DNA of 64,000 nucleotides, from IMG/VR virus record IMGVR_UViG_3300028840_006907, positions 224,001 through 288,000 of that record, one strand, 5' to 3'. Both the position numbers and the translations under genes were made by a program. Within the stretch, counting starts at the first letter, position 1. Each line of letters starts with the position of its first letter. A model generated the notes under the pieces. That model was not told the origin of the DNA, ran no database searches, and was given only the letters and a program-made list of their open reading frames with translations. This stretch comes from a virus. This document shows, in pieces, positions 3,040 to 43,141 of the stretch.

Positions 3040-6000
3040 GTGTCGGAAGTTTATCAGGGTGATTATGCCCCTAATTTATATAATGAGGAAAAGCGTTATT
3101 ACTTATTTCAAGCACAACAGTTGACAAATCTAACTGATGCTGAACTTCGTGATTTACATAATATATCGAACACGTATGTCCGTCGTACAGTGCAAGCTCA
3201 AATTGGTGATTGTGCAATACAAGATGGTTATAAAATTGCTGAGAATACTTCGGATAAGTCTAACAATTTTCTTATAACAGGAGGAAGTGGTACTCTTGAT
3301 GATCCAGGGATGTATTATCTTAAAGGATATCGATTATTCCTTTTAGGTGATATAGCCTATAAAGATCAAACAGATACAGGTACTATTACCGATGACGGTT
3401 ATACTAAAACTATATTACCTGCTCTGACAACGCCTACTGGGGTCACCTCCACTTTAAATAGCCTTTCTTTAAGTAATCCCACTCTTATCTGTTGTGGTGA
3501 TACGAGTGCTATTGCTAACTCTTCTGATTGGGGTCGAAATTGGGTTGATAGAAATGCTATGACATCCCAAAATCTAAATGGTTCTTCTTTAGGAGACGCC
3601 TCAGTCGGTTATGCAGTTGGTAATGTGGGAGCTGTTCTTCGTACAACTGATAGTGGAAATAGTTGGATAAATATCCGAACAAGTTTACCAACTCTACCAA
3701 CAAATTATCAAAATGTTAATTTCTTTGATGCTTATTTTGTGAACTCTTCTATCGGATGGATCACGGGTCAAAGTGGTGCCATATTAAAAACAATAAATGA
3801 TGGGACTAGTTGGACTGTACAGGGATCTGGTGTCACTACTTCAGATTTAAGTGGTGTTCATGGGACTGGATTAACTGATGTGTGGGCTGTCGGTAGTAGT
3901 GGTATGGTGGTAAAAACGACTGATGGTACAACCTGGTCTCAACAAGCTAGTGGAACTCTTTTTAATTTATCAAGAGTACATGCTATTAATACATTGGTCG
4001 CTTATGCTGTTGGTAATAGCGGTACTATAATAAAAACAACGAATGGTGGTACATCTTGGTCTGCACTTACTTCTGATACTACAGAAAATCTTCGTGATGT
4101 TCATTTCACGGATTTAAATAATGGTTGGGCTGTTGGTGATAATGGTACGATTACCCGAACAGATGATGCAGGTTCAACCTGGGATTCTTCTACTATTGCC
4201 AGTGTCGATTTAAGAGCTGTTACTTTTTATGATACCACAGGATTTACTGCTGGTGGAAGTGGTGAGATTTACAGAACTCTTGATAATACAAATTGGGTGA
4301 AATATCGTACTGATTATGTTTACATTGATTTCCATCTAGCTGAGGTTTCAGGTGATGCCACCTCAGGTAGTGAATACATAGATACAAGTTTAGTGGATGC
4401 GACTGTAGGTTATCCAAGTGCCAATAGATTGAGGGTGGTCTCTGATGTAAAAGTGTCTGAAGGGTGGCCAGCTCCAGCCGATTACACCAATACTGATGCT
4501 ACCCTTCAGCATTATATCGCTCCTCTTGCGTCAATAGAGCGTTCGGTGGGTACAAGTGATATAACTTCAGCTAACATCACAGATTTAAGAACTGTTGTTC
4601 GTACTATTGGTGAGATTGATGCTGCCCTTAAAGACGGAAGTATTGGTACTTCTGCAATAGCTGATGGAGCTATTACCCCTGATAAACTTGATAGTACTGG
4701 CGATTATACAATGGGATCACTCAGTATCTTGGGAGATTCTTCTATTGCTGGTGATTTAACTATAGGCGGTATATTAGTTGTTAGTGATTATAGAACTAGC
4801 ACTATCATGGATAATCTTGTGGTACGGGGATCTGCTCAATTAGGTGATTCAACAGCTCCATATGAGGATAGTGTTAATATTTATGGTAATATTACTCAAG
4901 TATTAGATTCAACTAAAATCGCTTATGATATACAAACATCTTCAACAACTGATGCTTCTCCAATAATTAAAATTGTTTCTGATAGTACAGGTAGTGTATG
5001 GCATGTAGAAAGTAAATCTCAAACGACATCGAGTCTTTTTGATGCTACTACACAGAATATGGGGTATGATTTCCATTTAAATCATTTAGGATATGAAGGT
5101 GGCTTATTTAAATTAAGGGATGATGCAAGTAACCATACCATTACTATATCTAAGACAGCTCCAGGATTTAGAGGGTCTGTTTTAGATGTTACAAGTAATA
5201 GCAATGACCCAACAATAAATATCGTAAACAGAGCTTTATCTGATTCAACAAGTTTAAGTATTGACCAGACTCATGGGACCATGATTACTTTGAATACGTT
5301 GGGTGATGCTTCTGGTATCGATATTTATTCACAAGGCTCTGGAAGAGACCTACATATAGATCATTCAGGTACTTTAGGAATAGCTGTAGATATTACTAGT
5401 TCCAGTGCACAGGTTGCAATGAATCTTGTAAATCAGATGGGACCTGCTGTAGTAATAACTCAGAATGGTGATGATGAAGCTCTGTTGGTTTTAAATAAAG
5501 ATTCTACAACCTTAGGAAGAGCTTTAGAGATTAACCATAGAGGTAGTGATGTTGGATTAGGTGTTTATAATACTGGTACTGGAATGGGTCAGCTAATTTC
5601 ACATGTAGGTGATTCTACTCATCCTGCATTAGATATTTATGTAGCAGGGAATGAAAAAGGTCCAGCTCTTCGTATAAATAAGGCAAATGATGAAACTGGT
5701 GAAGGTATAAGAGTATGGAATCAAGGTTTTAGCGAATCCTTAAGATTAATTCAGGATAGAACCGATTCCTCAGCTACAGTACTTTTAATTGAAAGCCAGA
5801 GTATTGGTTATGATGTTAGCTCTAGTAATTGGAATATAGATAGCTCAGGTAATATTTATACCGCTGGAAGTATTACTTCTGATTCTACTGCTACTGTAAC
5901 AAGTTCTAAATTTGCTTTTGATAGTACTTATTATATGACTTCTACAGGGATGTATCTTGATAACAGTGGCTATGATTCCTCTAATCCTGCTGTAGCTGGT

Positions 6001-9000
6001 AGGGCGTTTATAGAATCAGGTTTTTTAAGAGTCAGTGACGGTACTACAGCTTCTCCAATACCTTCATGGGGTGCTACTGGTGCCACAGGAAATACTGGGG
6101 CTACAGGATCCACAGGGGCTACAGGATCAGGGACTCAAGGAACAACAGGAGTTCAAGGATCTGCCGGGGCTACTGGAGCTACTGGACCGGCTGGAACTGG
6201 TTCTACAGGAGTCCAAGGTGTCCAGGGTGAAACCGGTATTCAGGGTCTCCAAGGTGATACGGGTGTTAGTTTAGGAGCAACAGGCTTGCAAGGTATCACA
6301 GGTCTCAGGGGATTCACGGGACTGCAGGGTCAAACCGGTGTTGCTGGGGAAACCGGAGTTCAGGGAGTGCAGGGACAAACCGGAGCTTTTGGTGGCCCTC
6401 CAGGAGAAACTGGCGTGCAAGGTGTCCAAGGAAACACTGGAGTACAAGGAACTACTGGAGTTCAAGGATCAACCGGAGTTCAAGGAATTCAAGGTCAGAC
6501 CGGAATTCAGGGAATCCAAGGAAATACTGGAGTACAAGGAATTCAAGGTAATACTGGAGTACAAGGTCAAACCGGAGTAAGTGGAGAAACTGGAGTACAA
6601 GGAACTACTGGAGTTCAGGGTATTCAAGGTCAAACTGGTATAGCAGGTCAGACAGGTATAGCAGGTCAAACCGGAGTTCAAGGAATCCAGGGAATTCAAG
6701 GTCAAACAGGTGCCCAGGGTTTAACAGGAGTAGCAGGTGAGACTGGAGTCCAAGGATCTCAGGGAAATACCGGAGTTCAAGGTATCCAAGGGCATACGGG
6801 AGCTGGGATACAAGGTACTACTGGTGTTCAAGGTTTACAAGGTCAGACTGGCTCTCAAGGTACTACTGGAATTCAGGGAGAAACTGGTGTAGGTATCCAA
6901 GGTCAGACGGGTGTTGCCGGTGTTGATGGCCAAACCGGAATTCAAGGAATCCAAGGAACCACAGGAGTTCAAGGTGAAACAGGAACTCAAGGAATTCAAG
7001 GAAATACCGGAATTCAAGGAACTCAAGGAAGCACAGGAGTTCAAGGAGAAACTGGAGTTGGTGCTCAAGGAACTACTGGAGTGCAAGGAATACAAGGAAA
7101 TACTGGAGTTCAGGGAACAACCGGAGTTCAGGGAATTCAAGGTCAAACCGGTGTTCAGGGAACACAAGGAGAAACAGGTTATATAGATTCTTCCAGTGTT
7201 AATCATAACGCTCTTCTTAATTTAACTGTTGGTGATGACCATACTCAGTATGCTTTTTTAGCTGGTCGTACTGGTGGGCAAACTATAAATGGTGGTGATG
7301 CTGCTTCAGACGTTTTAACTCTTCAAAGTACTACTGATACTACAAAAGGGAACATCATTCTTAATCCTATTAGTGGGGATGTCCCTGGTAAAGTTGGTAT
7401 AGGAGTAACATCTCCGATTTATCAATTACATGTTGGAGAGATTTTAGATGGCGGTACTGTAGGTATATGTATAAATAACCAGTATACTGCAAATGGATCA
7501 GTTGATGAAACTGCTAGTTTAATATATAGATTTGGTAGGCCACTCAGTCCTCAATATAGAGTAGCAGGTCAAGTATTAGTAGGTAAGGAACAGGATTGGT
7601 GGGATTATAATAGTACTGACGCTTATATGGCTTTTCATACTACTCGTGATACAATTTCACGTGAACAGATGAGAATTAATGCTCAAGGTTATGTTGGAAT
7701 AGGTACAACAAATCCCCAAGCTAAGCTTCATGTAACGACATTTGCTCAATTTGATGAAGGCTTTTCAACTAATATCGGTATAGGTGTTACCGCTCCTCAG
7801 GCACAGTTACATGTCGGAGAGAGTGTAACTGATGGAGATGTTTCAATAATTGTGAATAACTGGTCTTGGACTGGAGGGTCTGTAGATGAGACAGCTAGTT
7901 TACAATTCCGTTTTGGGCCTCCTCCAAGTAATTATTCTGCTGGTAAAATTTCTGCTCATAAAACTTTAGATTATATGAGTTTCGATAATAGAGACTCTTA
8001 TATGACTTTTAGTGTTGTAAATAATCAATCTGAAGTTGAGCGTATGAGGATTTTAAATGATGGAAAGGTAGGTATTGGTACAACTGATCCTCAAGAAAGA
8101 CTGCATGTAATTGATAGGGGTCAATTTGATATGGGGCTACAACAACCTATTGGTATAGGTGTAACGGCTCCATTAGCTGAATTACATGTTGGTAATAGTA
8201 CTAATGGTGGTGATGTAGGCATTATTATTAATAACCAATACAATACTACTGGATCAGTTGATGAAACAGCAAGTTTAATTTATAGATTCGGTACAGTAGG
8301 AAGTGCAAATTATCGAGTAGCTGCCAGAATTTGTGCTCATAAAGAATTAGACTGGCAATCTTTTGATAATGTCGATTCAGCTTTAGCTTTTAGGACTACT
8401 CGAAATCAATCTGAAAATGAAAGAATGAGAATAACTAGTGAAGGTGATGTAGGAATTGGTACTGTCACACCTTCAGAAAAATTACATGTAGAAGGTAATA
8501 TTTATACTACTAATGGTTTTCTTGCTGGTGGGAACATCCAAATTGAAGGGGACTTTTTAGGAGGGACTGATGGTAATTCTAATTTAGGCTCTACTTCAAG
8601 AAGATTTAATAACCTTTATATGGCTTCTTCGATAAATTATAATTCTGATCTAACCTTTGATTGTACGGGTACCCATGTAACCCTTACAACTGGTGGTAAC
8701 GTAGGTATAGGAACTACAAATCCCCAAGGATTATTTCATGTTTCTGATGATACCAATGGTGGTGATGTAGGTATTGTTGTTAGTAATCGCTATATTGGTG
8801 GTGGGTCAGTTGATGAAACAGCTAGTATGATTTATCGTTTTGGCCATCCGTTAGGAGTAGCTAATAAAGTTGCAGCCAGAATAAGTGCCCATAAAGAATT
8901 AGATTGGGCAAACTCTAATAATACTGATGCTGCTTTGATTTTCTGGACTACTCGTGATGCTGTTGAACGACAACAGATGAGAATTGATAGCAATGGTTAC

Positions 9001-10053
9001 TTAGGAATCGGTATAACTAATCCTCAGGAAATATTACATGTAGATGGTAATATCGTAGGATCATCTGGTTCTAATTTAGGGTCTGCTGCATTAAGATTTT
9101 CTAATCTTTATTTGGCTTCTTCTATAAACTATAATTCTGATCTTAATTTTGATTCAACAGGAACACATGTCACTTTTACAACAGGTGGTAATGTAGGTAT
9201 AGGTACTACAGATCCGCAAGCATTATTACATGTCTTTGATAGTACTAACGGTGGTGATGTTGAAGTTATAATTACTAATGACTATTATAGTGTTAGTTCG
9301 TTGGATGAAACTACCAGTATAACTTTTCAAAATAGAGGTCACGATGGTAATAGGTATACTGCAAGTAGAATTCTTTGTGGAAAAGAAGGAGATTTTAGTA
9401 TCTCTGATAGAAAAGGTTATCTAGCTTTCCATACAGTTAATCAAAGTTCATTTGAAAGAATGCGAATTACTTATGATGGTAATGTCGGTATAGATACTAC
9501 GGCACCTTTAGATAAGCTTTCTGTCGAAGGTCAAATGTCTGTGACTCTTGCAGGTGATCGAAAATTTAAAGTAGATAGTACAGGACAAATTTATTCCGAT
9601 GCAGGTACATCAATATTTACTCCTGCTGACCTTGCTGAATGGTCAAAGGTAGAGGGGTATCTGGAAGAATATGAGTTAGGTATGGTAGTACAACAATCCT
9701 GTGTAGATTTAACCGTTAAGCTAGCTGATAGCCCTTCTGAGAGAGTATATGGTGTGGTTACAAACCGTGCCACATTTTTGGGAAGTCTTACTGGTATTGA
9801 TAAGAAAATATTAAAAGAATTAACGGATAGTGAGATAGAAGATGAGTTCAATGCCAAAAAAATAGCAATGGTAGGGCATGTTCAAGTTCTGGTAAAGGGT
9901 ACCGTTAATATAGGTCAGTCATTGACTCTTTCTGATAAGAAAGGAATAGCACGGGGAGCTACAACTTTTGAAGAAAAAGCTCTGGCTCTTGGTATTGCAA
10001 GAGAAAGTTATGATTCAACCGATATAGGACTTATTGAGGCGAGATTATTATAA
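3040..10053 (+). CDS. giant fibre/structural protein: N-terminal Asp-box (BNR) repeats, collagen-like G-X-Y tract, five repeats of a ~120-aa module, C-terminal domain
   Basis: Repeated TxDxGxxW motifs (TDSGNSW, NDGTSW, TDGTTW, TNGGTSW, DDAGSTW); about 375 residues of uninterrupted G-X-Y; five modules each carrying GSVDETASLIYRFG and VGIGTTNPQ..LHV. Confidence 0.8.
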   Translation: MSEVYQGDYAPNLYNEEKRYYLFQAQQLTNLTDAELRDLHNISNTYVRRTVQAQIGDCAIQDGYKIAENTSDKSNNFLITGGSGTLDDPGMYYLKGYRLFLLGDIAYKDQTDTGTITDDGYTKTILPALTTPTGVTSTLNSLSLSNPTLICCGDTSAIANSSDWGRNWVDRNAMTSQNLNGSSLGDASVGYAVGNVGAVLRTTDSGNSWINIRTSLPTLPTNYQNVNFFDAYFVNSSIGWITGQSGAILKTINDGTSWTVQGSGVTTSDLSGVHGTGLTDVWAVGSSGMVVKTTDGTTWSQQASGTLFNLSRVHAINTLVAYAVGNSGTIIKTTNGGTSWSALTSDTTENLRDVHFTDLNNGWAVGDNGTITRTDDAGSTWDSSTIASVDLRAVTFYDTTGFTAGGSGEIYRTLDNTNWVKYRTDYVYIDFHLAEVSGDATSGSEYIDTSLVDATVGYPSANRLRVVSDVKVSEGWPAPADYTNTDATLQHYIAPLASIERSVGTSDITSANITDLRTVVRTIGEIDAALKDGSIGTSAIADGAITPDKLDSTGDYTMGSLSILGDSSIAGDLTIGGILVVSDYRTSTIMDNLVVRGSAQLGDSTAPYEDSVNIYGNITQVLDSTKIAYDIQTSSTTDASPIIKIVSDSTGSVWHVESKSQTTSSLFDATTQNMGYDFHLNHLGYEGGLFKLRDDASNHTITISKTAPGFRGSVLDVTSNSNDPTINIVNRALSDSTSLSIDQTHGTMITLNTLGDASGIDIYSQGSGRDLHIDHSGTLGIAVDITSSSAQVAMNLVNQMGPAVVITQNGDDEALLVLNKDSTTLGRALEINHRGSDVGLGVYNTGTGMGQLISHVGDSTHPALDIYVAGNEKGPALRINKANDETGEGIRVWNQGFSESLRLIQDRTDSSATVLLIESQSIGYDVSSSNWNIDSSGNIYTAGSITSDSTATVTSSKFAFDSTYYMTSTGMYLDNSGYDSSNPAVAGRAFIESGFLRVSDGTTASPIPSWGATGATGNTGATGSTGATGSGTQGTTGVQGSAGATGATGPAGTGSTGVQGVQGETGIQGLQGDTGVSLGATGLQGITGLRGFTGLQGQTGVAGETGVQGVQGQTGAFGGPPGETGVQGVQGNTGVQGTTGVQGSTGVQGIQGQTGIQGIQGNTGVQGIQGNTGVQGQTGVSGETGVQGTTGVQGIQGQTGIAGQTGIAGQTGVQGIQGIQGQTGAQGLTGVAGETGVQGSQGNTGVQGIQGHTGAGIQGTTGVQGLQGQTGSQGTTGIQGETGVGIQGQTGVAGVDGQTGIQGIQGTTGVQGETGTQGIQGNTGIQGTQGSTGVQGETGVGAQGTTGVQGIQGNTGVQGTTGVQGIQGQTGVQGTQGETGYIDSSSVNHNALLNLTVGDDHTQYAFLAGRTGGQTINGGDAASDVLTLQSTTDTTKGNIILNPISGDVPGKVGIGVTSPIYQLHVGEILDGGTVGICINNQYTANGSVDETASLIYRFGRPLSPQYRVAGQVLVGKEQDWWDYNSTDAYMAFHTTRDTISREQMRINAQGYVGIGTTNPQAKLHVTTFAQFDEGFSTNIGIGVTAPQAQLHVGESVTDGDVSIIVNNWSWTGGSVDETASLQFRFGPPPSNYSAGKISAHKTLDYMSFDNRDSYMTFSVVNNQSEVERMRILNDGKVGIGTTDPQERLHVIDRGQFDMGLQQPIGIGVTAPLAELHVGNSTNGGDVGIIINNQYNTTGSVDETASLIYRFGTVGSANYRVAARICAHKELDWQSFDNVDSALAFRTTRNQSENERMRITSEGDVGIGTVTPSEKLHVEGNIYTTNGFLAGGNIQIEGDFLGGTDGNSNLGSTSRRFNNLYMASSINYNSDLTFDCTGTHVTLTTGGNVGIGTTNPQGLFHVSDDTNGGDVGIVVSNRYIGGGSVDETASMIYRFGHPLGVANKVAARISAHKELDWANSNNTDAALIFWTTRDAVERQQMRIDSNGYLGIGITNPQEILHVDGNIVGSSGSNLGSAALRFSNLYLASSINYNSDLNFDSTGTHVTFTTGGNVGIGTTDPQALLHVFDSTNGGDVEVIITNDYYSVSSLDETTSITFQNRGHDGNRYTASRILCGKEGDFSISDRKGYLAFHTVNQSSFERMRITYDGNVGIDTTAPLDKLSVEGQMSVTLAGDRKFKVDSTGQIYSDAGTSIFTPADLAEWSKVEGYLEEYELGMVVQQSCVDLTVKLADSPSERVYGVVTNRATFLGSLTGIDKKILKELTDSEIEDEFNAKKIAMVGHVQVLVKGTVNIGQSLTLSDKKGIARGATTFEEKALALGIARESYDSTDIGLIEARLL
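6070..7186 (+). repeat. collagen-like G-X-Y triplet-repeat tract (9/18-nt periodic) inside the 2337-aa fibre gene
   Basis: Direct reading: GxTGxQG codon repeats; produces spurious ORFs in other frames. Confidence 0.9.
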
Positions 10054-10275: not shown

Positions 10276-12027
10276 TTATGCCTTGTGAAATCGAAAACTA
10301 TTATTAAATAAATAACTAGGTTTTGACTCAACTGATCTTCCCATGTATGTTCTGGTTTTTGAGTAGCTTATATTTAAACATTTCTGAGCCCTTGTGCATG
10401 CTACGTAAAATAATCTCTCTTCCTCTTTTTTATCTACAGCAAAACTATGAGGCCATACTCCTTCTTCTACACCTACAACTAGGACTGTATTAAATTCAAG
10501 ACCTTTACTGGCATGAGCCGTTAATAACTTAACCCCATGTCCGGTATCTTCTTCCAGAAATGTACTTGCTAAAACCAGGTCCTCTATGGTTCTAAATTCT
10601 CTGATGATTTCTAAAAATGAAGTCAGCATTGTACGGTCACTATCTTTTTTAATAGTAGTTCTATAATCTGTTTTATATAAGATAGTCTCAACAGCCTCTG
10701 AAGGAGTCATGCCCTTTATTTCATTTAAGATATTTATAAGTCCTCTTATACGGGGCATTTCATAAGCCATAGTTTCTAGATAAGACCAGCCTTCTCGAAG
10801 TAAAATTTCTTTTTTCTTTGCTCCGAATCCACGAGGGGGTACATTTACGATTCGGTTTAAACTTTCTAAATCATCTCTATTCGTACTGGCTTTGAGAAAA
10901 CTCATTAAATCTTTGGGAACTCTACGCTTATAATAAGGAAGGGCACCAACAACTTTATATGGTATGTGTTTACTTGCAAAAGCTCTTTCAAAGAATAAGG
11001 ATCTTGCATTTACGCGAAACAGTATTGCGGTATTTTCGTAATCGTTGGCTCTTATAAGGGCATTGGATATTTTCTCTGCCTCGTCTTCCTGACTATTAAA
11101 TCCGGTGAAAGATATTGATCCTTGGAAAGGGTTTTTAGCAACCATCTGATTACCGTATTGAATGTATTGATTGGCATGTTTTATGATCTCTGGAGAACAT
11201 CTGTAGTTGAAACTTAAGTGACATACAGTCGGTTTATGTAATTCTATAAAATGTTTTATGTTCTCAGGATGGGCACCCCTAAATTGGTAAATGGACTGAT
11301 TAAAATCAGCCACTACAAACAATGTCTTTGAATTTTTTGTGTATAGTTTATTTATAATGTCATATTGAATTAAAGATGTATCTTGAAATTCGTCTACTAA
11401 TAGATGAGGCCATTTTTTTGAGTAAAAATCAGCGCAATCTTTATGTCCTAAACAGTCATTGGCATAAATGAGTAGGTCATCGAAATCACATGCATTATTT
11501 TTTAGAAGAATCTCTTGGTAAGTTTTATATACAAGTAAAAAATTTCCTTCATTCAGTTCTGATGTAAACTGCGAAAGTCTGAATGATTTCCTGACATTAT
11601 CGGACCCCATTGATTTGATATGGCTAATAGCCAAGACATATGTTTTGGGTTCTCCGGGCAATTCCCGAGATTTAATGATTGTTTTTACAATTGATAACTG
11701 ATCACCGTCATCATATATACTAAAATTAGGTTTTATTGGTAAATGCCGTGTAAAATTTCTGATTATCCCTACACATAAACTGTGAATTGTGCTGACTTGC
11801 ATTTTTCCAATAGAGTCACAATGTAACTTTAATCGCTCTTTCATTTCATTGGCTGCTTTATTCGTAAAAGTAATAGCACATATATTATCTGGAGAAATAC
11901 CTTGTTCCATAAGCCTTAAAATCTTGGCTATAAGACATCGGGTTTTTCCTGATCCTGCCGAGGCATTAACCATTGTAGGTGATGCAGCTTCAACGGCTCT
12001 GGTTTGTTCTGTATCTAATGATATCAT
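10276..12027 (-). CDS. superfamily 1 DNA helicase, UvrD/Rep/PcrA family
   Basis: Walker A AGSGKTRCL; Walker B LLVDEFQDTS; motif IV FNYRCSPEII; motif VI TAHASKGLEFNTVLVVG; 583 aa. Confidence 0.85.
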   Translation of the reverse strand: MISLDTEQTRAVEAASPTMVNASAGSGKTRCLIAKILRLMEQGISPDNICAITFTNKAANEMKERLKLHCDSIGKMQVSTIHSLCVGIIRNFTRHLPIKPNFSIYDDGDQLSIVKTIIKSRELPGEPKTYVLAISHIKSMGSDNVRKSFRLSQFTSELNEGNFLLVYKTYQEILLKNNACDFDDLLIYANDCLGHKDCADFYSKKWPHLLVDEFQDTSLIQYDIINKLYTKNSKTLFVVADFNQSIYQFRGAHPENIKHFIELHKPTVCHLSFNYRCSPEIIKHANQYIQYGNQMVAKNPFQGSISFTGFNSQEDEAEKISNALIRANDYENTAILFRVNARSLFFERAFASKHIPYKVVGALPYYKRRVPKDLMSFLKASTNRDDLESLNRIVNVPPRGFGAKKKEILLREGWSYLETMAYEMPRIRGLINILNEIKGMTPSEAVETILYKTDYRTTIKKDSDRTMLTSFLEIIREFRTIEDLVLASTFLEEDTGHGVKLLTAHASKGLEFNTVLVVGVEEGVWPHSFAVDKKEEERLFYVACTRAQKCLNISYSKTRTYMGRSVESKPSYLFNNSFRFHKA

Positions 12028-12338
12028 TAATTATAATTCCAAAATCTTGTTTTCATACTTATAACTGAAGCACCCGCTACAATGTTAACGAGTAATCCAT
12101 AATTATAAGTATGGTTAATGTTATGTTTCTTTTTTACATCGTAAAGTTTTTTTAATGTTAATACTATTTCAGCTACTTCTAATAATAATGGAACTTCTTT
12201 TATTTCCTCTGAAGACTTGACTACTGGTTTATATAAATCGCTAAAAATCTTTTTAAAATAAACTTCTACCTCTCCTTTATCCGTCTTGAAAAAAATTCGA
12301 TACCTCCCCTTACCATTCTTTTTTAGTACCTCCATCAT
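12027..12338 (-). CDS. hypothetical protein
   Basis: 103 aa ORF in minus-strand block; start overlaps helicase stop. Confidence 0.4.
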   Translation of the reverse strand: MMEVLKKNGKGRYRIFFKTDKGEVEVYFKKIFSDLYKPVVKSSEEIKEVPLLLEVAEIVLTLKKLYDVKKKHNINHTYNYGLLVNIVAGASVISMKTRFWNYN

Positions 12339-12416
12339 AAGTCACTGCTAGTTTGGCTTTAATTAGCATTTTACCTAAATCTTTTCCGTCAACAAAGAAA
12401 TAAGTCATGAATTTAG

Positions 12417-12638
12417 TCATGTTTTATTCTTATTTTTTGAATTGCTCTTTTCATCGATTATATATTTTTTAATAGTATATACCTTTATTATTCCGAGTTT
12501 TTTAAATATATAATCTTGAAATTCTTTTTCTAATTTATCGAAATCATAACTTACTAATTCTAAAGCCCATTTTACCCTGAAATCTTTTTCAGCTAATTGA
12601 ATCAATTTTATTTGAAATTCTGTTTGTGTTAATTCCAT
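12417..12638 (-). CDS. hypothetical protein
   Basis: 73 aa ORF. Confidence 0.3.
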   Translation of the reverse strand: MELTQTEFQIKLIQLAEKDFRVKWALELVSYDFDKLEKEFQDYIFKKLGIIKVYTIKKYIIDEKSNSKNKNKT

Positions 12639-12658
12639 AAATTTTAAGAAAAGTCCTT

Positions 12659-12934
12659 CTATATTTTAGTTAATGGCTCGTCGTATTTTTCAAGAGTTTC
12701 ATCTCTTTTAACCAATTTGCAGTTTACAAATTCAGGCATTCTCGGGTCTTTATTAAATGTATCCACTAATTCCTGAGCATCATCTTTAAATAGACAACAT
12801 GCTTCGTGTGGGTCTTTCACGAAATGTGTCCATGAGTCATTCTCTGAACTGCGAATTTTTTTCATAGCATAAAAAGTACCATTCGGGTGTTGGATTAAAT
12901 AATCCTGGCTAGTATCTGTGTAAAAATCGTTCAT
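12659..12934 (-). CDS. hypothetical protein
   Basis: 91 aa ORF; contains HPNG but no downstream Cys, so not a confident E2. Confidence 0.4.
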   Translation of the reverse strand: MNDFYTDTSQDYLIQHPNGTFYAMKKIRSSENDSWTHFVKDPHEACCLFKDDAQELVDTFNKDPRMPEFVNCKLVKRDETLEKYDEPLTKI

Positions 12935-13089
12935 AATATACCGCCTTTTGAATGAGTGTGAATAAGTTAATAGTGAGTCCTTTATAAATATTATACCAGT
13001 CTACCCTTGAAACTCTCCCAAAAAAATTTTAATAAAAAATGTGATGGTTTGTAATTCGTTGAGAAGTATAAAATTATAAAACAAAAAAA

Positions 13090-13428
13090 TTAGTCTAAAA
13101 ACTTCTCAATATTTTCTATTGAATTAATGATTTTACCATTTTCTTGTATGAAATAAAATCTTTTTCCACATTTTATACAACTTATTACAGCCATGTTGGG
13201 AACAACTTCTTTAAAATGAAATTGATTATTGATTTGATCTATTACTGATTGCATATTTGAGAAGATGGTATTTCTTTGATATAATGTGAAGACATATTTA
13301 CAGTGAGGGCAGATAATTCGATGAGGATCAACAATTTTTTCCTTATGTTTTTTTATAAGTTCTATGATAAAACTTATAATAATGTAAATACTGAGAAAAG
13401 TCATGGGAAAAATTAATAATTCTTTCAT
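13090..13428 (-). CDS. hypothetical membrane-anchored zinc-ribbon protein
   Basis: N-terminal hydrophobic segment; CPHC...CIKCG paired-Cys motifs. Confidence 0.45.
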   Translation of the reverse strand: MKELLIFPMTFLSIYIIISFIIELIKKHKEKIVDPHRIICPHCKYVFTLYQRNTIFSNMQSVIDQINNQFHFKEVVPNMAVISCIKCGKRFYFIQENGKIINSIENIEKFLD

Positions 13429-13429
13429 T

Positions 13430-13813
13430 CTAAAGATAATCCTCTATTCGTTTAGCCTTTTCATTCAGATATAATAGGACTTTTTCATCATCTTTGATTT
13501 TACCTTTATCATCGATATATGAAGTCATCTCAATAGATTTGATAGGTTTAACAGTCCCATGATTGATTTCAATTTTTCTATGTACTCCTTTTACTAACAA
13601 GTCAATTTCTTCTTTCTCATCTGAGTCCCAGTGGTACTCTGGGAATAAATAATTAATCTGATTCTTACCATAACCTTTAAATCGACTCAGGATGAAACTG
13701 TTATCAAATTTGTTAAATATGCCTAAAGTCGAATTTCTTGCCATTATAAGATACAGGCAATTGTGTATACATTTATTTAATGGGACATATGATTTAAATT
13801 TCTCTATGCTCAT
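13430..13813 (-). CDS. hypothetical protein
   Basis: 127 aa ORF immediately downstream of E1-like gene. Confidence 0.4.
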   Translation of the reverse strand: MSIEKFKSYVPLNKCIHNCLYLIMARNSTLGIFNKFDNSFILSRFKGYGKNQINYLFPEYHWDSDEKEEIDLLVKGVHRKIEINHGTVKPIKSIEMTSYIDDKGKIKDDEKVLLYLNEKAKRIEDYL

Positions 13814-13828
13814 TGAGTAATATATTTT

Positions 13829-14470
13829 TTATCTATCAAATTCTGAAATTTTCATATCTTTTAAAGTGATTATATAATTCTTTTTAACACCACTCTCAAT
13901 GAATTTGATTAATGACTCCGATGCTACTGCCACTGCCAGAAGTATAATATTCCTGGCCAATGGGTACTCGCATACATCAGGAGCTATCGTGTCTTTTGGG
14001 ACGGTATAAGATTCGTTCCATATTATTTCCGCGTAATCCTGAGACAGCCCGACATGTAAACAGCTCAAACCATTATCCTTACAATATTGATAAACTAATT
14101 TTCGGCTAATATTATTATCAAAAGAATCGATGATAATATTTGGTTTTTTCAAATATTTACTCACAGTAGTTTTATTAAGTTCTTTACTATTGGCATTCAA
14201 AACAGTTTTGGTTGAAGCATATGCTCTCATTTTCATAGTCGCTACTTTGTAGGTACCTTTTTCATTTTGGTTCCAGATCTGGGTACCATTATTGTGAGGT
14301 TCAATTCTGTCTTTATCGATAATTGTAATTTCTTTGAATCCCTGTCGAACTAAATTATCACAAAGATTTGACCCTATTGCTCCGACACCACAGAGTGTAA
14401 TTGGGGTTGTTGATAATTTACCAACTACTTCTTCAGATCGATACATTCTTTCATGTATTAATAAATCCAT
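13829..14470 (-). CDS. ThiF/MoeB/E1-like adenylyltransferase (ubiquitin-activating-like)
   Basis: Rossmann glycine loop LCGVGAIGSNL followed by IIDKDRIEPHNNGTQ (E1 DxDxVExSNLNRQ-like); 213 aa; adjacent to JAB protein. Confidence 0.65.
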   Translation of the reverse strand: MDLLIHERMYRSEEVVGKLSTTPITLCGVGAIGSNLCDNLVRQGFKEITIIDKDRIEPHNNGTQIWNQNEKGTYKVATMKMRAYASTKTVLNANSKELNKTTVSKYLKKPNIIIDSFDNNISRKLVYQYCKDNGLSCLHVGLSQDYAEIIWNESYTVPKDTIAPDVCEYPLARNIILLAVAVASESLIKFIESGVKKNYIITLKDMKISEFDR

Positions 14471-14474
14471 AATA

Positions 14475-14999
14475 TCATCCTATCCTAGCTATAATGCGAT
14501 CTTTTAACAAGACAAAGGGAATTTCAATACAACCTACAATCCGGTCTTTGTCTCTTTTATATAAATAAAATCTTTGTACTTCTGATTTGATTCCACATAA
14601 TAACGGTTTACCCAAAGCTTTGACCCAACCAGTCATAGTTTTATCATCTAAGGATGAAGGTTCCATTATATTACTTGGATGAGTATGATTAAAACCTACT
14701 ATTTTATTTCTGTCTCTGATTACTTTTTCCCAGTCAAAATCAACTGAACCAGGACCACCAGTGGATTCATAGATTAGTCTACCATAAATCCATTTGCAGT
14801 ATTTTTTACCATATATGATCCAACAATTTTCGTTAATTGTTTGTACTACTTCAATAGCTTCTATTGTTAATTTATTTTTATTGTAAATACCTTTATATGT
14901 TCGACCACATTCTGGGCATGGCATTCTTTGTGTTTCATTTTCTGTAATCCAGCATATATATTTTCCGCACTTACATGTAAATTCACTGCTTTCGGGCAT
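14475..14999 (-). CDS. JAB/MPN+ (JAMM) metalloprotease with N-terminal zinc ribbon
   Basis: Exact JAMM signature HTHPSNIMEPSSLD (HxHx7Sx2D); N-terminal CKCG...CPECG. Confidence 0.7.
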   Translation of the reverse strand: MPESSEFTCKCGKYICWITENETQRMPCPECGRTYKGIYNKNKLTIEAIEVVQTINENCWIIYGKKYCKWIYGRLIYESTGGPGSVDFDWEKVIRDRNKIVGFNHTHPSNIMEPSSLDDKTMTGWVKALGKPLLCGIKSEVQRFYLYKRDKDRIVGCIEIPFVLLKDRIIARIG

Positions 15000-15025
15000 A
15001 GGGATATATCCTTATTTTAGATTTT

Positions 15026-15925
15026 CTAATACAACGTTCTACTTATTTGATGAGTGCGTTGACCCTCTTTTATTACAGAAATTAATGCTTTTAAATCATA
15101 GTCTTTATCACCAACATGACCTGTTTCATGGTCGGTTAAACAGATGCCTGCAGTAATAACGTGGTGACTTTGATCTTTAGTAACAATAGTATTAAATTTC
15201 TCTCCATCGATTTCATATGTTACATAAATATGATCCGATTTTTCATCACTGCTCAGGTATTTACCTCCGGCAAATTCTATATCACGTTGAATCTTTGTTT
15301 TTTTCTTTTCTTCAAGTGCTCGTTCACGTTCTTCTTTGATTTTTAAATCGATTTTGTATTTTATGTTAAAAGCAATTTTCTCCTCCAATGTCAGACCAGA
15401 GAATTTTAATTTAGATGGGTCTCTGAATTCTTTCAGGGACTCATTAAGATAATCTGTAATCATCGGATCGGCTGACATATCCATTGAATCAAACCAGATA
15501 TTAGCTCCGTCAAATCGGCATAGACATTTAGAAAATGTTGTAACCATATCATCGAAAAGAAGAACTGGGTATAATTCTGATACTTTTAATCCCAGATGAT
15601 TACTCTTTATCGGGATCCCAAGATAAAAATCTTTCTTTTTATGTACTAAAACCATTCTTATCTTTGGTAAATATTTAAGATAAGATTGAATCTCATCTAT
15701 TTCCGCTAAATCTATTGCTTCAGCCCGTTTATTATCAAGTGCTTTGAATTTGTACCATCCCGGTTCTGTTTTCGGGATGTTTAAGTAATGAATAATTCCT
15801 TGAATACGGATAATGATTCGGTCATTATAATACACAGGAGAAATGATAGTCTTTTCAGTCATCATTTCTTCCTGTTTCCCTATTTTATCAATAAGGTTTA
15901 AAATATTATCTTTTCTTACGGTCAA
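15026..15925 (-). CDS. hypothetical protein
   Basis: 299 aa ORF between JAB and Ro60-like genes; start overlaps Ro60-like stop. Confidence 0.5.
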   Translation of the reverse strand: MTVRKDNILNLIDKIGKQEEMMTEKTIISPVYYNDRIIIRIQGIIHYLNIPKTEPGWYKFKALDNKRAEAIDLAEIDEIQSYLKYLPKIRMVLVHKKKDFYLGIPIKSNHLGLKVSELYPVLLFDDMVTTFSKCLCRFDGANIWFDSMDMSADPMITDYLNESLKEFRDPSKLKFSGLTLEEKIAFNIKYKIDLKIKEERERALEEKKKTKIQRDIEFAGGKYLSSDEKSDHIYVTYEIDGEKFNTIVTKDQSHHVITAGICLTDHETGHVGDKDYDLKALISVIKEGQRTHQISRTLY

Positions 15926-17462
15926 AAGATTTCCTCACGGGTAAAGGTGTATCCATGATCTCATATAGAAGATCGAGTTTTGATTTTCTGGATAGCAATG
16001 GAATTAATCCAGGCAATCCATAGTAATCGCTACCTTCAGGTTCATAGTAATCGAAAGGTATTCTAGCTTGTTTTAAATACATGCTGAATTCTTTACGACT
16101 CCATGAACTTGGAATGTAAATAATAGTAATAGTAGGAGTCACATTAAATTTTTTAACATAATTATCCCATATCTCAACGAAAAATGGATTATTATTTTCA
16201 CCTTCATCAGTGACCACTATTATCTGTTCTACATAATAGTTTTTTCTAATAAGGTAATCTAATGCTATACCTATGGAAGTCCCACCATTACTTTTTACAG
16301 GTCTGAAAGCCCTTTCCCAGGCAGACATATTCGGTTCATTAGCTGTGATCTCTCTGGCCATTGTATCAAAAGTAATAGCATAGAGAGGAGCTTCTGTAGC
16401 ACCTGAAATAAGAGCCGCAACATTTTTTCCGACTTCGATGGCTTGAGTCATAGAACCTGATTTATCGATAAAGACTGCAGTAGGTACTTTTATAACACCT
16501 TTCTTTTTAATTTGCTGATCTGCAATTTCATCGAGGATCTTTTGAGATTCCTCATTTTTGATCCGACCTGTTTTCTTTGCTTCTTTGGATTTTAAAGCTG
16601 ATACATTTTTAGCTTTTTTAGCTTTTTCCAATTTAGCCGTAATCAATGTTTTTGTATCCTCATTGTCCATGGCACCACGTTCTTCTAGGGAAGCATAGTT
16701 ATTAATAACTTCCTGTGGAGACATAGCATTGATTAGAGCAATCAGAATTGTAGGAGTGATTTGATCAACCAAACCTACAGCCACCGTATAAGGTACTTTA
16801 TGTTCTATAATCAGCTTTGCCACTTCAGTCGGATTATCAGCTTGTGCTATTTTTTCGAAAACATTTAATTTACTGTCCGTAGGACGTTCATTTCCGAAAA
16901 GAATCTTCTGAGCACGTTCACTAGGTGCTATACGAAGAGTAGCATATAATCCTTTAAGATCTTTTGGACTTTTTAGGGCAATAGCATCAAAAAGATCGTT
17001 GTTGGTTTCAATATATTGAAGAAATTTCTCAACATCCCTTTTAAAGGCAGTAGGAATATTTTTGTAAAGACCTACATTTTTTTCTTCAATTTTTACTTCA
17101 TCGATCATTTTTTTCTTCATTTTTATTTTTTTGCCCGTTTTATTTCTGATCTTTATTTTTTTACCTTTAATAAAACCGACCACACGTCTTTTAAGATATA
17201 CAGGTATTTCCCTGAAGAGGGCTAGCCCAACTTCACGGTTGTCAAGAAATTCATCAACAATAAGTGAACCGATGAATACTTCTTTATGATCCCGAATATC
17301 TCCATTCTTGTAGTACCAGCTTCCAAGGTGGGCATAAAACAGCGGATCTGCTTTTTGTAATTCAAGATGGGTATTTTTTAATTTATCTAGGTCCCGGTGA
17401 GGGCAACTCAGAAATGAGTTAAGCATGTTAACTCTGATATCATTTTCGTTAGCTTGGTTCAT
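15906..17462 (-). CDS. rsr: Ro60/Rsr-like protein (TROVE module plus C-terminal vWA domain with MIDAS motif)
   Basis: MIDAS motif AVFIDKSGSM in C-terminal third; IVVTDEGEN resembles Ro60 IVFTDNETF; N-terminal GSWYY motif resembles Ro60 GGTYY; 518 aa; structured tRNA-like RNAs encoded divergently. Confidence 0.7.
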   Translation of the reverse strand: MNQANENDIRVNMLNSFLSCPHRDLDKLKNTHLELQKADPLFYAHLGSWYYKNGDIRDHKEVFIGSLIVDEFLDNREVGLALFREIPVYLKRRVVGFIKGKKIKIRNKTGKKIKMKKKMIDEVKIEEKNVGLYKNIPTAFKRDVEKFLQYIETNNDLFDAIALKSPKDLKGLYATLRIAPSERAQKILFGNERPTDSKLNVFEKIAQADNPTEVAKLIIEHKVPYTVAVGLVDQITPTILIALINAMSPQEVINNYASLEERGAMDNEDTKTLITAKLEKAKKAKNVSALKSKEAKKTGRIKNEESQKILDEIADQQIKKKGVIKVPTAVFIDKSGSMTQAIEVGKNVAALISGATEAPLYAITFDTMAREITANEPNMSAWERAFRPVKSNGGTSIGIALDYLIRKNYYVEQIIVVTDEGENNNPFFVEIWDNYVKKFNVTPTITIIYIPSSWSRKEFSMYLKQARIPFDYYEPEGSDYYGLPGLIPLLSRKSKLDLLYEIMDTPLPVRKSFDRKKR

Positions 17463-17483: not shown

Positions 17484-17813
17484 TCAGGTTTCAATTTTTC
17501 CGAAAGTAGCATTTGGTCTAACTGTAATGTTACCATTTTTATGGTGTTCAACAACTAATTCAGCAAATTCTGATGCTGGTCTATCATAATGATCTACTAA
17601 AGCCAATTTAATTTGTTCACCAGTTATATTATCCGATGTGATCTCGGTTCCTGGTTCAATCCCGAGTTGTTCCCATCTGTCTTCTGGGAAAAGATCTTTG
17701 AGATTAATATCTTCAGTTTGACCATCATACATTATATGGACTTCACTCATATGAGCCTCCTTGTAATAAGTTAAAAAAAGAGTCCCGTATATTATACGAC
17801 ACGAGATTAACAT
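17484..17813 (-). CDS. hypothetical small acidic protein; true start probably at internal Met (MSEVH) preceded by AAGGAGG
   Basis: ORF track 109 aa; strong SD upstream of internal ATG near 17750. Confidence 0.4.
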   Translation of the reverse strand: MLISCRIIYGTLFLTYYKEAHMSEVHIMYDGQTEDINLKDLFPEDRWEQLGIEPGTEITSDNITGEQIKLALVDHYDRPASEFAELVVEHHKNGNITVRPNATFGKIET

Positions 17814-17867: not shown

Positions 17868-17896
17868 ATAACTTTTTTAAAAAAATTATTGACACA
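17868..17896 (+). promoter_or_regulatory. sigma70-like promoter (TTGACA, 17 nt spacer, TATATT) upstream of the tRNA and structured-RNA array
   Basis: Direct reading of consensus -35 and near-consensus -10 with 17 nt spacer, about 60 nt upstream of tRNA. Confidence 0.6.
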
Positions 17897-17955
17897 CTTA
17901 AAATTTATGGTTATATTATTGACAGTTCTGCACTCTAACTTTTGATGCTTACATA

Positions 17956-18032
17956 GAGAAAATAGCTCAGTTGGTCAGAGCGCGAGATTTAGGTTCTTGA
18001 AGTCTTCGGTTCAATTCCGAATTTTCTTACCA
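17956..18032 (+). tRNA. canonical tRNA, class I; hand-folded anticodon UAG (decodes CUA) with encoded CCA
   Basis: Hand fold: acceptor GAGAAAA/TTTTCTT, D-arm GCTC-AGTTGGTCA-GAGC, anticodon stem CGAGA/TCTTG with loop TTTAGGT, T-arm TTCGG-TTCAATT-CCGAA, discriminator A then CCA. Confidence 0.7.
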
Positions 18033-18081
18033 TAAAATTAGCACCTTCAACTTGTGCAGAACTACTTAAACCAAGAAATAA

Positions 18082-18199
18082 AAGTCAGACATTCTAATTA
18101 TTAGGGCGTACATGGCGTTAAAACCATGCTTCCTGCAGAAATCAGGAAGCAATCTCTGGGCCAAGGCTCAGGGGCGCACTGATGACTTATGTCTGACTT
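18082..18199 (+). ncRNA. structured RNA element (Y RNA-like, non-tRNA-like) closed by a 9-11 bp terminal helix
   Basis: Terminal inverted repeat AAGTCAGACAT/ATGTCTGACTT; internal hairpins CATGG/CCATG and GCTTCCTG/CAGGAAGC; shares TCTAA..GGGC.TACA motif with downstream tRNA-like units. Confidence 0.4.
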
Positions 18200-18250
18200 A
18201 ATATAGATTGTAAAGTGTTGTAAAATAAATTTGATCTTTGAAAATTATAG

Positions 18251-18436
18251 GATAATGCCTTCTAACCTGTTGGGCTTACAAATTTTACTGGTTCGACTCC
18301 AGGTTCCGCCTCTCGGTCCTTTTGTAAAGATTGTAAAGGATCAGGAGGCGGAACAAGCCGGGTGGTCTGGCGATTGAATGCAAATCAATTTATTTGAAAT
18401 TAACGCTCTTTTAACTTGGGCATTTATCCTTTTTTA
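18251..18436 (+). ncRNA. tRNA-like structured RNA unit 1 (Y RNA/YrlA-like or permuted tRNA): terminal helix, T-arm, closed acceptor-like helix, D-arm, anticodon-like hairpin (loop ATGCAAA), U-tract
   Basis: T-arm CTGG-TTCGACT-CCAG; 10 bp helix GTTCCGCCTC/GAGGCGGAAC; D-arm GCC-GGGTGGTCT-GGC; hairpin ATTGA/TCAAT; flanks GGATAATGCC/GGCATTTATCC pair; TTTTTT follows. Confidence 0.6.
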
Positions 18437-18478
18437 TAGTAATTTATAATTTTATATAAAGTGATCTTTGAAAATATG

Positions 18479-18668
18479 AGGTAAGTGCCTCCTAACATAA
18501 CGGGCTTACAAATTAATAGGGTTCAACTCCCTGTTCCCCCGCCTAAGTCTTTGTCATATAATGATTAAGATTTGGGCGGGGGAACGAGCTGGGTGGTTCA
18601 GCAATCAACGTTTAATTGATGAAAAACATTTTTACGCTCTTTTAACTTAGGCACTTACTCTTTTTATT
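18479..18668 (+). ncRNA. tRNA-like structured RNA unit 2 (Y RNA/YrlA-like or permuted tRNA); anticodon-like loop CGTTTAA
   Basis: T-arm AGGG-TTCAACT-CCCT; helix GTTCCCCCGCC/GGCGGGGGAAC; D-arm GCTG-GGTGGTT-CAGC; hairpin ATCAA/TTGAT; flanks GAGGTAAGTGCC/GGCACTTACTC pair; TTTTT follows. Confidence 0.6.
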
Positions 18669-18684
18669 AAATTGAAATTACAAG

Positions 18685-34878: not shown

Positions 34879-34881
34879 TAA

Positions 34882-37173: not shown

Positions 37174-37220
37174 TTATAAAATTTACATATAAGATCTATA
37201 TAACATATAAGGAGGTTCAA

Positions 37221-42782: not shown

Positions 42783-43141
42783 TAACTGAAATTGATGATG
42801 ATAGTAAAGACATAAAGATAAAATTAGGAAATTTATTTGAAAAATATGAAAATCTTTATCGGGAAGGGAATAGACAGTTTAGAACAGAGAGAATAGCTTC
42901 TGCTGGGTCAATGGATGGTCTGGAAGAATTTCGTCGTTTGATGCTTATTGTAAAAAGAAATAAGGATGTAGTGGCCTCGCTAATGCGGGGTATAGCTAAT
43001 TTTAGGTCTATTTCAAATTTTAAGTTTGTAGAAGAGGAAGTAGAAATTTCAAAACCGAAACCAAAGAAAACAAAGAAAGCTACTCCTGAAAAAGTGATCA
43101 TACCTATACCAATAGTAGCGGAGGAATTTAATGGCGAATAA
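42761..43141 (+). CDS. hypothetical protein
   Basis: 126 aa ORF overlapping neighbours by a few codons. Confidence 0.4.
   Translation: MPDFNKLITEIDDDSKDIKIKLGNLFEKYENLYREGNRQFRTERIASAGSMDGLEEFRRLMLIVKRNKDVVASLMRGIANFRSISNFKFVEEEVEISKPKPKKTKKATPEKVIIPIPIVAEEFNGE

Follow-up and report, generated by a model that had tools for sequence, protein, structure and literature searches.

In a 64,000-nt stretch of viral DNA (positions 224,001 to 288,000 of IMG/VR record IMGVR_UViG_3300028840_006907, called here the window), an E1-like enzyme of the ThiF family and a metallopeptidase of the JAB type are encoded by adjacent genes. We consider it fairly probable that these two enzymes form the end of one five-protein system, with an array of Y-RNA-like RNAs built on a shared frame beside it, and that the whole is a ubiquitin-like protein (Ubl) system devoid of E2 that works on or with a Ro60-like ribonucleoprotein (RNP). 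An initial annotation had taken the pair for the enzymatic core of a ubiquitin-like system, with coordinates that agree exactly with the list of open reading frames (ORFs) of the window, and that view is borne out. The same annotation considered that the module might be minimal, or might depend on a host or cryptic substrate; the pair is instead one end of a syntenic operon of five genes with a probable Ubl gene of its own:

13829-14470, minus strand: E1-like (ThiF-family) adenylating enzyme of 213 amino acids (Pfam, PDB profile, residue conservation)
14475-14999, minus strand: JAB/MPN+ (JAMM) metallopeptidase of 174 amino acids with an N-terminal zinc ribbon (motif and family conservation)
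15026-15925, minus strand: tandem OB-fold protein of 299 amino acids from an unannotated family (structure model)
15906-17462, minus strand: divergent Ro60-like protein of 518 amino acids, with a helical TROVE-like N-terminal part and a C-terminal vWA domain (profile, Pfam vWA_Ro60, MIDAS [metal-ion-dependent adhesion site])
17484-17750, minus strand: candidate ubiquitin-like (beta-grasp) protein of 88 amino acids, ending in ...VRPNATFG-KIET

The genes are co-directional and occur in a conserved order, Ubl (~70-90 amino acids), Ro60-like TROVE/vWA protein (~520), OB protein (~285), JAB, and E1, which is maintained down to ~40% E1 identity. Synteny was searched with profiles built from the proteins of the window, which recover this order in the majority of related loci; the loci compared come from IMG/VR (15), metagenomes (80), and species genomes (80 of the 313 matching stretches that contain E1 relatives). 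Where 6.5 kb or more is available upstream of E1, all five genes are present in 36 loci and four (without JAB; mostly cyanobacteria) in 30. The operon recurs in dozens of huge-phage contigs, and the 595-kb uncultured phage LR756511.1 carries the whole five-gene set. It is also found in bacterial chromosomes and in a cyanobacterial plasmid lacking tail genes. The hosts of the genomic copies include Nostoc, Calothrix, Tolypothrix, Leptolyngbya, Spirulina, Planctomycetes, Chloroflexi/Anaerolineae, Desulfobacterales, Armatimonadota, and Thiomargarita. On the Dolichospermum plasmid, the only annotations that the copy bears are "ThiF family adenylyltransferase" and "hypothetical protein."

The 213-residue protein matches Pfam ThiF (PF00899) with E = 1.9e-23 and 83.3 bits (cut-off 28.1). 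A 27-sequence profile of its family (A1) finds in the PDB the enzymes TcdA, UBA6, SAE2, UBA1, MccB, Uba4, MoeB, Cap2, and ThiF (E = 3e-16 to 1e-5), and also NAE and UBA5. The sequence contains GxGAxGS from residue 28 and DKDRIEPHNNGTQ from residue 52. In 83 distinct viral or metagenome homologs of E1, G30, A31, D52, D54, N60, Q64, K75, D118, R123, C167, and P170 are invariant; the invariant cysteines of the protein are C137 and C167 ("CEYP" motif). By fold, loop, adenylation residues, and Pfam gathering score the protein belongs to the E1/ThiF/MoeB superfamily, as originally proposed. It is a minimal form, without rhodanese, E2, or UFD domain and without a CxxC zinc motif; all 433 word-index matches are 210-229 amino acids long, with no fusion among them, and the current RefSeq label of the family is "ThiF family adenylyltransferase." Against the NCBIfam equivalogs, all scores are under the cut-offs (ThiF 69.9 of 159 bits, MoeB 35.9 of 449, UbaA 28.5 of 450, PRTRC 32.7 of 145, TcdA 27.9 of 304). 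The synteny with a Gly-terminated, predicted beta-grasp protein suggests that E1 would adenylate the C-terminal Gly of that partner.

In the JAB protein, the motif H105-T-H107-x7-S115-x2-D118 is preceded by E57, and each of these five residues is shared by 79 or 80 of the 80 distinct homologs. Since the Pfam Prok-JAB score (21.9 bits) is under the cut-off of 25, the assignment to the JAB/MPN+ (JAMM) metallopeptidases is based on this E...HxHx7Sx2D motif and on family conservation; there are weak matches to the Prok-JAB, desampylase, and Cap3 hidden Markov models (HMMs). The initial annotation had named two outcomes that would speak against it, a 213-residue protein outside the E1/ThiF superfamily and unconserved JAMM histidines; both were checked and neither was found. 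The zinc ribbon it described (CxC...CPxC; C9, C11, C28, and C31) is indeed present, but restricted to the lineage of the window; the homologs, of ~120-140 amino acids, are without it.

The candidate Ubl gene lies three genes upstream of the JAB/E1 pair, beyond the range of 12027-15925 in which no Ubl had been recognized. Its true start is MSEVH, behind an AAGGAGG Shine-Dalgarno sequence. The family was recovered through synteny, a word-index search having yielded just five relatives. In 66 of 66 distinct members the C-terminus reads (V/I)RPxAx(F/Y/W)G with an invariant Gly, a single Gly and not Gly-Gly, which is either exposed (49/66 end exactly there) or followed by one to five residues (17/66; KIET in the window). 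JAB accompanies the Ubl in every one of the 23 loci where it is tailed, against 21 of the 55 where it is not (Fisher p = 8e-8, uncorrected for shared ancestry). In the AlphaFold model (predicted local distance difference test score, pLDDT, 82.8), the protein has the beta-beta-alpha-beta-beta topology and a disordered tail. Sequence profiles give no significant link to any known family or Ubl. The sole PDB neighbors of the profile (alignment A10) are uL23 sequences, with nonsignificant E values of 0.12-0.86, an observation that recalls the ribosome-mimic theme described below. The 88-residue protein is a probable, very divergent Ubl, with the Gly as its point of activation. The 91-, 112-, and 127-residue neighbors in which a Ubl had been sought are poor candidates: the ORFs of 127, 112, 91, 73, and 103 amino acids downstream of E1 show no conservation outside the phage of the window and a handful of its near kin.

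The 518-residue protein appears to be a remote homolog of the Ro60/TROVE-vWA proteins. Its MIDAS is complete (D333, S335, S337, T395, and D419, invariant in 79/79), and a 37-sequence profile of the family matches only Ro60/TROVE structures in the PDB: human RO60 (E = 1.6e-5), Thermus phage phiRo60 (9KOP/9L5Y; 4.8e-4), Xenopus Ro (0.03), and Deinococcus Rsr (0.25). The alignment extends from the helical region into the vWA domain, and Pfam vWA_Ro60 is detected in 5 of the 37 family members. By analogy with Ro60, the protein would bind the adjacent Y-like RNAs. The OB gene is always directly upstream of JAB/E1, and its unannotated family comprises ~900 clusters; Cys262, within an A/S-G-I-C-L motif, is conserved in 106 of 107 homologs. 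The 299-residue protein was considered as an E2 and rejected, its model being a tandem OB fold and not a UBC fold. No UBC, E2, or E3 match was obtained among the ten minus-strand ORFs with Pfam, PADLOC, NCBIfam, or PHROG, in agreement with the earlier view that an E2 is lacking. The UBC-fold E2 that characterizes canonical E1-E2(-E3), Bil, and Bub systems is therefore missing from the operon.

Upstream of the Ubl gene, a stretch of 1.2 kb free of ORFs encodes five structured RNAs on the plus strand (17921-18863), divergent from the operon (R1 is a covariance model):

17889-17917, plus strand: sigma-70-like promoter TTGACA-17-TATATT (11/12 matches; consensus match only), which heads the RNA array and is divergent from the Ubl operon
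17921-18069, plus strand: framed RNA 1, a tRNA-Leu(UAG) (17956-18032) inside the frame (tRNA 65.9 bits; R1 frame 36.8 bits)
18080-18204, plus strand: framed RNA 2, a three-way-junction cargo inside the frame (minimum free energy z-score -4.77; R1 frame 31.6 bits)
18248-18433, plus strand: framed RNA 3, circularly permuted tRNA-like, re-permuted to tRNA-Cys(GCA) (R1 136.4 bits, covariation, re-permutation)
18478-18664, plus strand: framed RNA 4, circularly permuted tRNA, re-permuted to tRNA-Lys(UUU) (R1 144.8 bits, permuted-tRNA scan)
18680-18863, plus strand: framed RNA 5, circularly permuted tRNA, re-permuted to tRNA-Ser(UGA) (R1 141.1 bits, re-permutation, permuted-tRNA scan)
18899-18930, plus strand: terminator-like hairpin with a T-run (consensus match only), which closes the array

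RNAs 3-5 are paralogs of ~185 nt that can be aligned with units of related phages. Of the 32 pairs in the consensus structure of the permuted units, 24 show compensatory changes; 93.2% of the cells are paired, against 70.3% in shuffles. Covariation scores 0.677, compared with 0.254 in shuffles (0 of 500 reach it) and at most 0.19 with slid partners. From the 5' end, each unit forms an outer stem, a conserved internal loop, a 4-bp stem, and a T-arm (GGUUCRAnUCC), followed by a capped acceptor-like stem, a D-arm-like element GCC-AAUUGGUA-GGC, and a 5-bp hairpin with a 7-nt loop. Re-joining the halves computationally as 5' acceptor, D, anticodon, T, and 3' acceptor yields an ARAGORN tRNA call for 13 of the 15 units; the native sequences yield none. 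A generic scan for permuted tRNAs gives 66 sites in 181 sequences, all inside the RNA region of the module, against 0 in shuffled sequences. R1 matches RNAs 1 and 2 through the outer positions only; thus, the outer stem and the internal loop are a common frame around different cargo, with the consensus CCUAAYC..GRGCxUACAU / GCYCUUUUAACUU. In most of the phage and bacterial loci, R1 detects full-length framed RNAs within the module or next to it, invariably on the operon strand in the bacterial ones. Nearly every locus also has a tRNA, canonical or permuted, at most a few hundred bases upstream of Ubl. In Rfam, the window matches only tRNA, both at the gathering threshold and at E ≤ 1; apart from that tRNA, the framed RNAs are unmatched.

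In several tRNAs or permuted tRNAs of the module (L001:3849, L023:3580, L152:2024, L155:305, L160:1125, and others), the anticodon would read a stop codon: UCA and UUA occur in permuted units, and CUA (ARAGORN "Pyl") in the tRNA upstream of Ubl in at least nine cyanobacterial loci. Anticodons also vary between otherwise homologous units. A tmRNA match under the threshold (39.6 bits, gathering 47) is found at L152:1820-1903, directly upstream of the first tRNA of the module. Arrays of 9-24 tRNA genes abut the module in several bacteria (L112, L125, L129, L130, L133, L146, and L162) and in LR756511.1 (L182:12225-18355). These arrays may connect the module with the cyanobacterial L-array tRNA operons, in which extra tRNA genes that spread horizontally are clustered beside RNA-processing genes and which are induced by translation inhibitors in Anabaena (PMC8421152). 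ThiF, vWA, and ubiquitin-like genes go unmentioned in that paper.

In cyanobacteria, the frame occurs also between the Ro60-like and OB genes, and there it encloses near-exact copies of two elements of 23S rRNA. One is the sarcin-ricin loop (AGUACGAGAGGAAC; CUAGUACGAGAGGAACGG). The other is the 56-nt GTPase-associated center (H43/H44; Rfam LSU 1093-1148), with 51.7 bits (gathering 50). Such mimics occur in a small framed RNA of Calothrix sp. NIES-2100 (L152:6790-6925) and in L132, L136, L138, L147, L149, L151, L154, L160-L162, L167, L169, and L173-L175. Together, the two copies amount to a miniature of the factor-binding site of the ribosome. Both motifs are confined to the cyanobacterial loci and absent from the window. 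In addition, a paralog of L7/L12 (Pfam 8e-23) is encoded inside the module, directly before the Ro60-like gene, at L152:3889-4281 and in 14 other cyanobacterial loci, and a conserved protein of 241 amino acids follows directly after the Ubl gene in 19 loci of the cyanobacterial modules.

On these grounds a course of reactions can be proposed. The tail (KIET here) would be cut off by JAB, exposing Gly84 of the Ubl, as in the trimming by QbsD and Mec+. Gly84 would then be adenylated by the minimal E1 and probably be passed on as a thioester to C167. Transfer to the target would proceed in the absence of a UBC-type E2, either directly, in the manner of SAMP and TtuB, or via Cys262 of the OB protein. 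The most plausible target would be a lysine in the Ro60-like RNP, or in a protein recruited to it, and the attachment would be reversible by JAB. The framed RNAs, by analogy with Ro60 and Y RNA, would be held by the Ro60-like ring and the OB protein, with a cargo that imitates substrates of the translation apparatus. A system of this kind would survey, protect, or repair RNAs of translation, and the copy in huge phages probably acts against host defenses directed at tRNA or rRNA.

Several observations weigh against this proposal. The chemistry and the target, like every step of the mechanism, are inferred by analogy. The nearest solved relative of the E1, TcdA, acts on tRNA and not on protein. 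The relationship of the 518-residue protein with Ro60 is remote (E = 1.6e-5, with the 37-sequence profile), with no match to Pfam TROVE, and the frame lacks the GNCGAA(N)G motif to which Rsr binds in canonical YrlA (PMC4201824). The Ubl terminates in aromatic-Gly rather than Gly-Gly. Finally, JAB is not detectable in the cyanobacterial modules; it follows that conjugation cannot be reversible in every module, and a role in sulfur carriage or another acyl transfer would suit those modules equally well.

The strongest rival is indeed that of a sulfur carrier, because the cyanobacterial modules are JAB-less and tRNAs are constant neighbors. The small protein would be of the ThiS/MoaD/TtuB/Urm1 type, with its Gly adenylated by E1 for thiocarboxylate formation, and the sulfur would pass to the tRNAs or tRNA-like RNAs of the module (s2U or s4U type) or to a small molecule, with JAB only trimming the precursor or releasing adducts in the way of QbsD and Mec+. 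We hold this reading to be unlikely. TtuB/TtuC and Urm1/Uba4 serve tRNA thiolation, and QbsE requires JAMM trimming. The E1 has the minimal size of MoeB/ThiF, its best NCBIfam domain matches are ThiF models (far under the cut-off), no E2 accompanies it, and in the cyanobacterial modules with Ubl and E1 but no JAB the Ubl stops exactly at Gly. However, the conserved module contains no rhodanese, cysteine desulfurase, or PP-loop thiouridylase; the E1 itself has neither a rhodanese domain nor the CxxC zinc site; the terminus is not Gly-Gly; and 21 loci of phages, Planctomycetes, and Chloroflexi retain JAB although their Ubl is tail-less. The E1 could also act directly on RNA, as TcdA does, by adenylating the carboxyl of a modified nucleoside or by activating a framed tRNA, with the small protein as a TGS-like, RNA-binding beta-grasp accessory instead of a modifier. 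This is improbable: TcdA is the best solved relative (E = 2.9e-16), two homologs bear its name in the JGI annotation, and the module is saturated with tRNA-like RNAs, but the lead of TcdA over the other E1 enzymes is just ~5 bits, and an invariant Gly at most five residues from the end, tails found only with JAB, and a JAMM peptidase are the signature of a protein activated at its C-terminus.

The initial annotation left room for a pair without its own Ubl and noted that some such systems act on phage tail proteins; in the corresponding rival, the pair would conjugate or deconjugate a host or cryptic Ubl on structural (tail) proteins of the phage. Giant collagen-like and lectin-like fiber genes do enclose the E1/JAB genes, both in the window and in L001, a related phage, and JAB has a weak PHROG match to "tail protein" (E = 0.0026). 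Nonetheless, the operon holds a dedicated gene for the probable Ubl and resides also in chromosomes and a plasmid without tail genes; its conserved partners are the Ro60-like protein, the OB protein, and RNAs (tRNAs, permuted tRNAs, and rRNA mimics); and the small neighbors at 12027-13813 are unconserved. Tail modification was rejected on this synteny: the system would not modify tail proteins, and the pairing with a foreign Ubl is scarcely credible. Very little weight, likewise, can be given to membership in the ubiquitin-like antiphage systems (type II cyclic oligonucleotide-based antiphage signaling system [CBASS] with Cap2/Cap3, Bil, and Bub) or to a countermeasure against them, in which JAB would, for example, strip conjugates of a host Ubl or cGAS. 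PADLOC gives domain-level matches to its E1-E2 and JAB models (E1 3e-16, JAB 4e-4), and NCBIfam a match to 6A-MBL cap2_3 and a trace of Cap3. These scores are far under the cut-offs (for the two NCBIfam models, 55 bits where 320 are required and 13 where 200 are required) and limited to the shared adenylation or JAMM core. Type II CBASS is characterized by a CD-NTase, a Cap2 fusion, and Cap3 with models above cut-off; in the operon, PADLOC covers the E1 core only, there is no E2 domain, CD-NTase, or Ubl of Bil or Bub, and the module, with its own Ubl, is equally at home in bacteria.

Coming back to the E2-less Ubl system joined to a Ro60-like RNP, a bolder version of it deserves mention as a tentative possibility: a new class of RNP, in which a Ubl, handled by a minimal E1 and possibly by the OB cysteine as a non-UBC carrier, would be wired to a Ro60-like ring with "bait" RNAs. 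The baits would copy vulnerable RNAs of translation (tRNAs and circularly permuted tRNAs), and their damage or engagement would be read out by attachment or removal of the Ubl. In cyanobacteria, the baits would also include the sarcin-ricin loop and the GTPase-associated center beside the L7/L12 paralog. Such a device might serve as a guard of translation in bacteria of multicellular type and as a counter-defense in huge phages. In a radical variant, the Ubl would be joined to RNA itself, for example, to the 3' end of a tRNA, by a chemistry resembling aminoacylation. That the ensemble constitutes a novel type of RNA-surveillance system is a substantial possibility.

Among known systems, the archaeal SAMP/UbaA/HvJAMM1 and the Thermus TtuB/TtuC with JAMM likewise combine one MoeB/ThiF-like E1 with a JAMM/JAB enzyme and do without E2 or E3; their small beta-grasp protein, which the candidate Ubl of the module would match in fold, also has a Gly at the C-terminus. 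In comparison, the E1 of the window is shorter (213 amino acids), lacks the CxxC zinc site, and is far from the UbaA model (28.5 bits, cut-off 450); the Ubl ends with F/Y/W-Gly and has no sequence similarity to SAMPs; and the operon is obligately associated with the Ro60-like protein, the OB protein, and structured RNAs. In the QbsE/QbsC/QbsD and CysO/MoeZ/Mec+ pathways, a Ubl precursor also has residues past the Gly that a JAMM enzyme removes before adenylation by E1; here, the module has no sulfurtransferase or biosynthetic enzyme, and the context is RNA and not the synthesis of a metabolite. The CBASS, Bil, and Bub systems have in common with the module an E1 adenylation domain and JAB, in bacteria and in contexts of phage conflict, but they differ by the presence of an E2 (UBC) domain or gene and, in CBASS, of a CD-NTase, the domain-level matches being well under the cut-offs, and the partners here are RNA-binding proteins.

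The other half of the module resembles the Ro60/Rsr-YrlA RNPs (PMC4201824), including the phiRo60-Yrl1/2 of the Thermus phage phiLo (PMC12135203), by a HEAT/TROVE-like region followed by a vWA-MIDAS and by its occurrence in phages. As in YrlA, several noncoding RNAs lie beside the gene, with a terminal stem between the 5' and 3' ends and the order T-arm, capped acceptor stem, and D-arm (PMC4201824). The differences are marked. The Ro60-like protein of the window is very divergent, without a Pfam TROVE match and with a profile E value of only 1.6e-5; the framed RNAs share, in place of the GNCGAA motif, a different conserved internal loop (CCUAAYC / UUUUAACUU); they retain the full anticodon arm and are, therefore, complete permuted tRNAs; the cargo includes also ordinary tRNAs and rRNA mimics; and the genes linked are those of Ubl, E1, and JAB, whereas the Ro60/Rsr systems are linked with RtcB/RtcA or PNPase.

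Circularly permuted tRNA genes are known in Cyanidioschyzon merolae and in some archaea. There, as here, the 3' half (T-arm and 3' acceptor strand) is encoded ahead of the 5' half. The present ones are bacterial or from phages, lie within a conserved stem-loop frame at the position of the variable loop, and are tied to the Ro60-like/Ubl operon.

The operon uniting Ubl/E1/JAB with a Ro60-like RNP, an OB protein, and framed RNAs is undescribed in the searchable literature, of which our coverage is incomplete, so that an earlier mention is possible; none of PMC8421152, PMC7159879, PMC7824862, PMC10910872, PMC4201824, and PMC12135203 describes TROVE/Ro60 together with ThiF/JAB/Ubl. Each half resembles a known kind, the E2-less Ubl systems on the one side and the Ro60-Y RNA particles on the other (with a phage example in PMC12135203), and it is their obligate union that appears to be new. 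If the proposal is correct, it would be the first link of ubiquitin-like chemistry to a Ro60/Y-RNA particle in prokaryotes and viruses. The ~900 clusters of the OB-fold family and the widespread minimal E1 family gain a context, and the comparison brings to light tRNA genes of bacteria and phages that are circularly permuted yet complete, as well as small RNAs that copy the factor-binding site of the ribosome. The proposal would also suggest how RNAs of translation are protected or monitored during conflict in huge phages, filamentous cyanobacteria, Planctomycetes, and Chloroflexi. In animals, Ro60 and the ubiquitin ligase Ro52/TRIM21 share one autoantigen complex. The module is carried by cultured hosts (Calothrix NIES-2100, Nostoc carneum NIES-2107, Tolypothrix tenuis PCC 7101, and the Dolichospermum plasmid pAfl69) and is, therefore, directly testable.

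Variations of the operon and of its surroundings were noted in several groups. One phage subclade (L004:9253-10131 and nine further loci from phages or metagenomes) has a radical-SAM-like protein and a methyltransferase encoded after E1, and its JAB and OB genes have moved several kilobases upstream. Two Nostocales genomes contain CRISPR arrays (Rfam CRISPR-DR5) ~3 kb downstream of the module (L155:11708-11885 and L157:11581-12190), and the copy of the Dolichospermum plasmid (L181) is flanked by a HEPN protein and an IS1634 transposase. The module may thus lie in defense islands or mobile elements.

The window itself looks like part of a huge phage. Its exact E1 protein is found also on contigs of up to 469 kb. 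No deposited phage has nucleotide similarity to the window, and LR756511.1 is the sole one matched by protein. In the surroundings of the minus-strand island with the operon there are BNR and giant collagen-like proteins, proteins of the ConA-lectin type, an ORF with an intein, and glycosyl- or methyltransferases. Several of these, and the helicase that closes the island, have the following coordinates:

3040-10053, plus strand: giant ORF of 2337 amino acids with long collagen-like G-x-x repeats
10276-12027, minus strand: UvrD-family helicase of 583 amino acids, which closes the minus-strand island (strong PADLOC matches to the GajB and DRT-associated helicase models)
22251-31487, plus strand: giant ORF of 3078 amino acids with long collagen-like G-x-x repeats
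31499-38959: four ConA-lectin (Laminin_G_3) proteins, after the giant collagen-like ORFs
43131-46484, plus strand: ORF of 1117 amino acids with an intein and a LAGLIDADG homing endonuclease (Pfam LAGLIDADG_3, Intein_splicing, Hom_end)

The position of the UvrD-family helicase is kept in the related phage L001/L002. The giant collagen-like ORFs and the ConA-lectin proteins are presumably fibers or adhesins, and the collagen-like repeats of the 2337- and 3078-residue ORFs push the local GC content to 45-48%.

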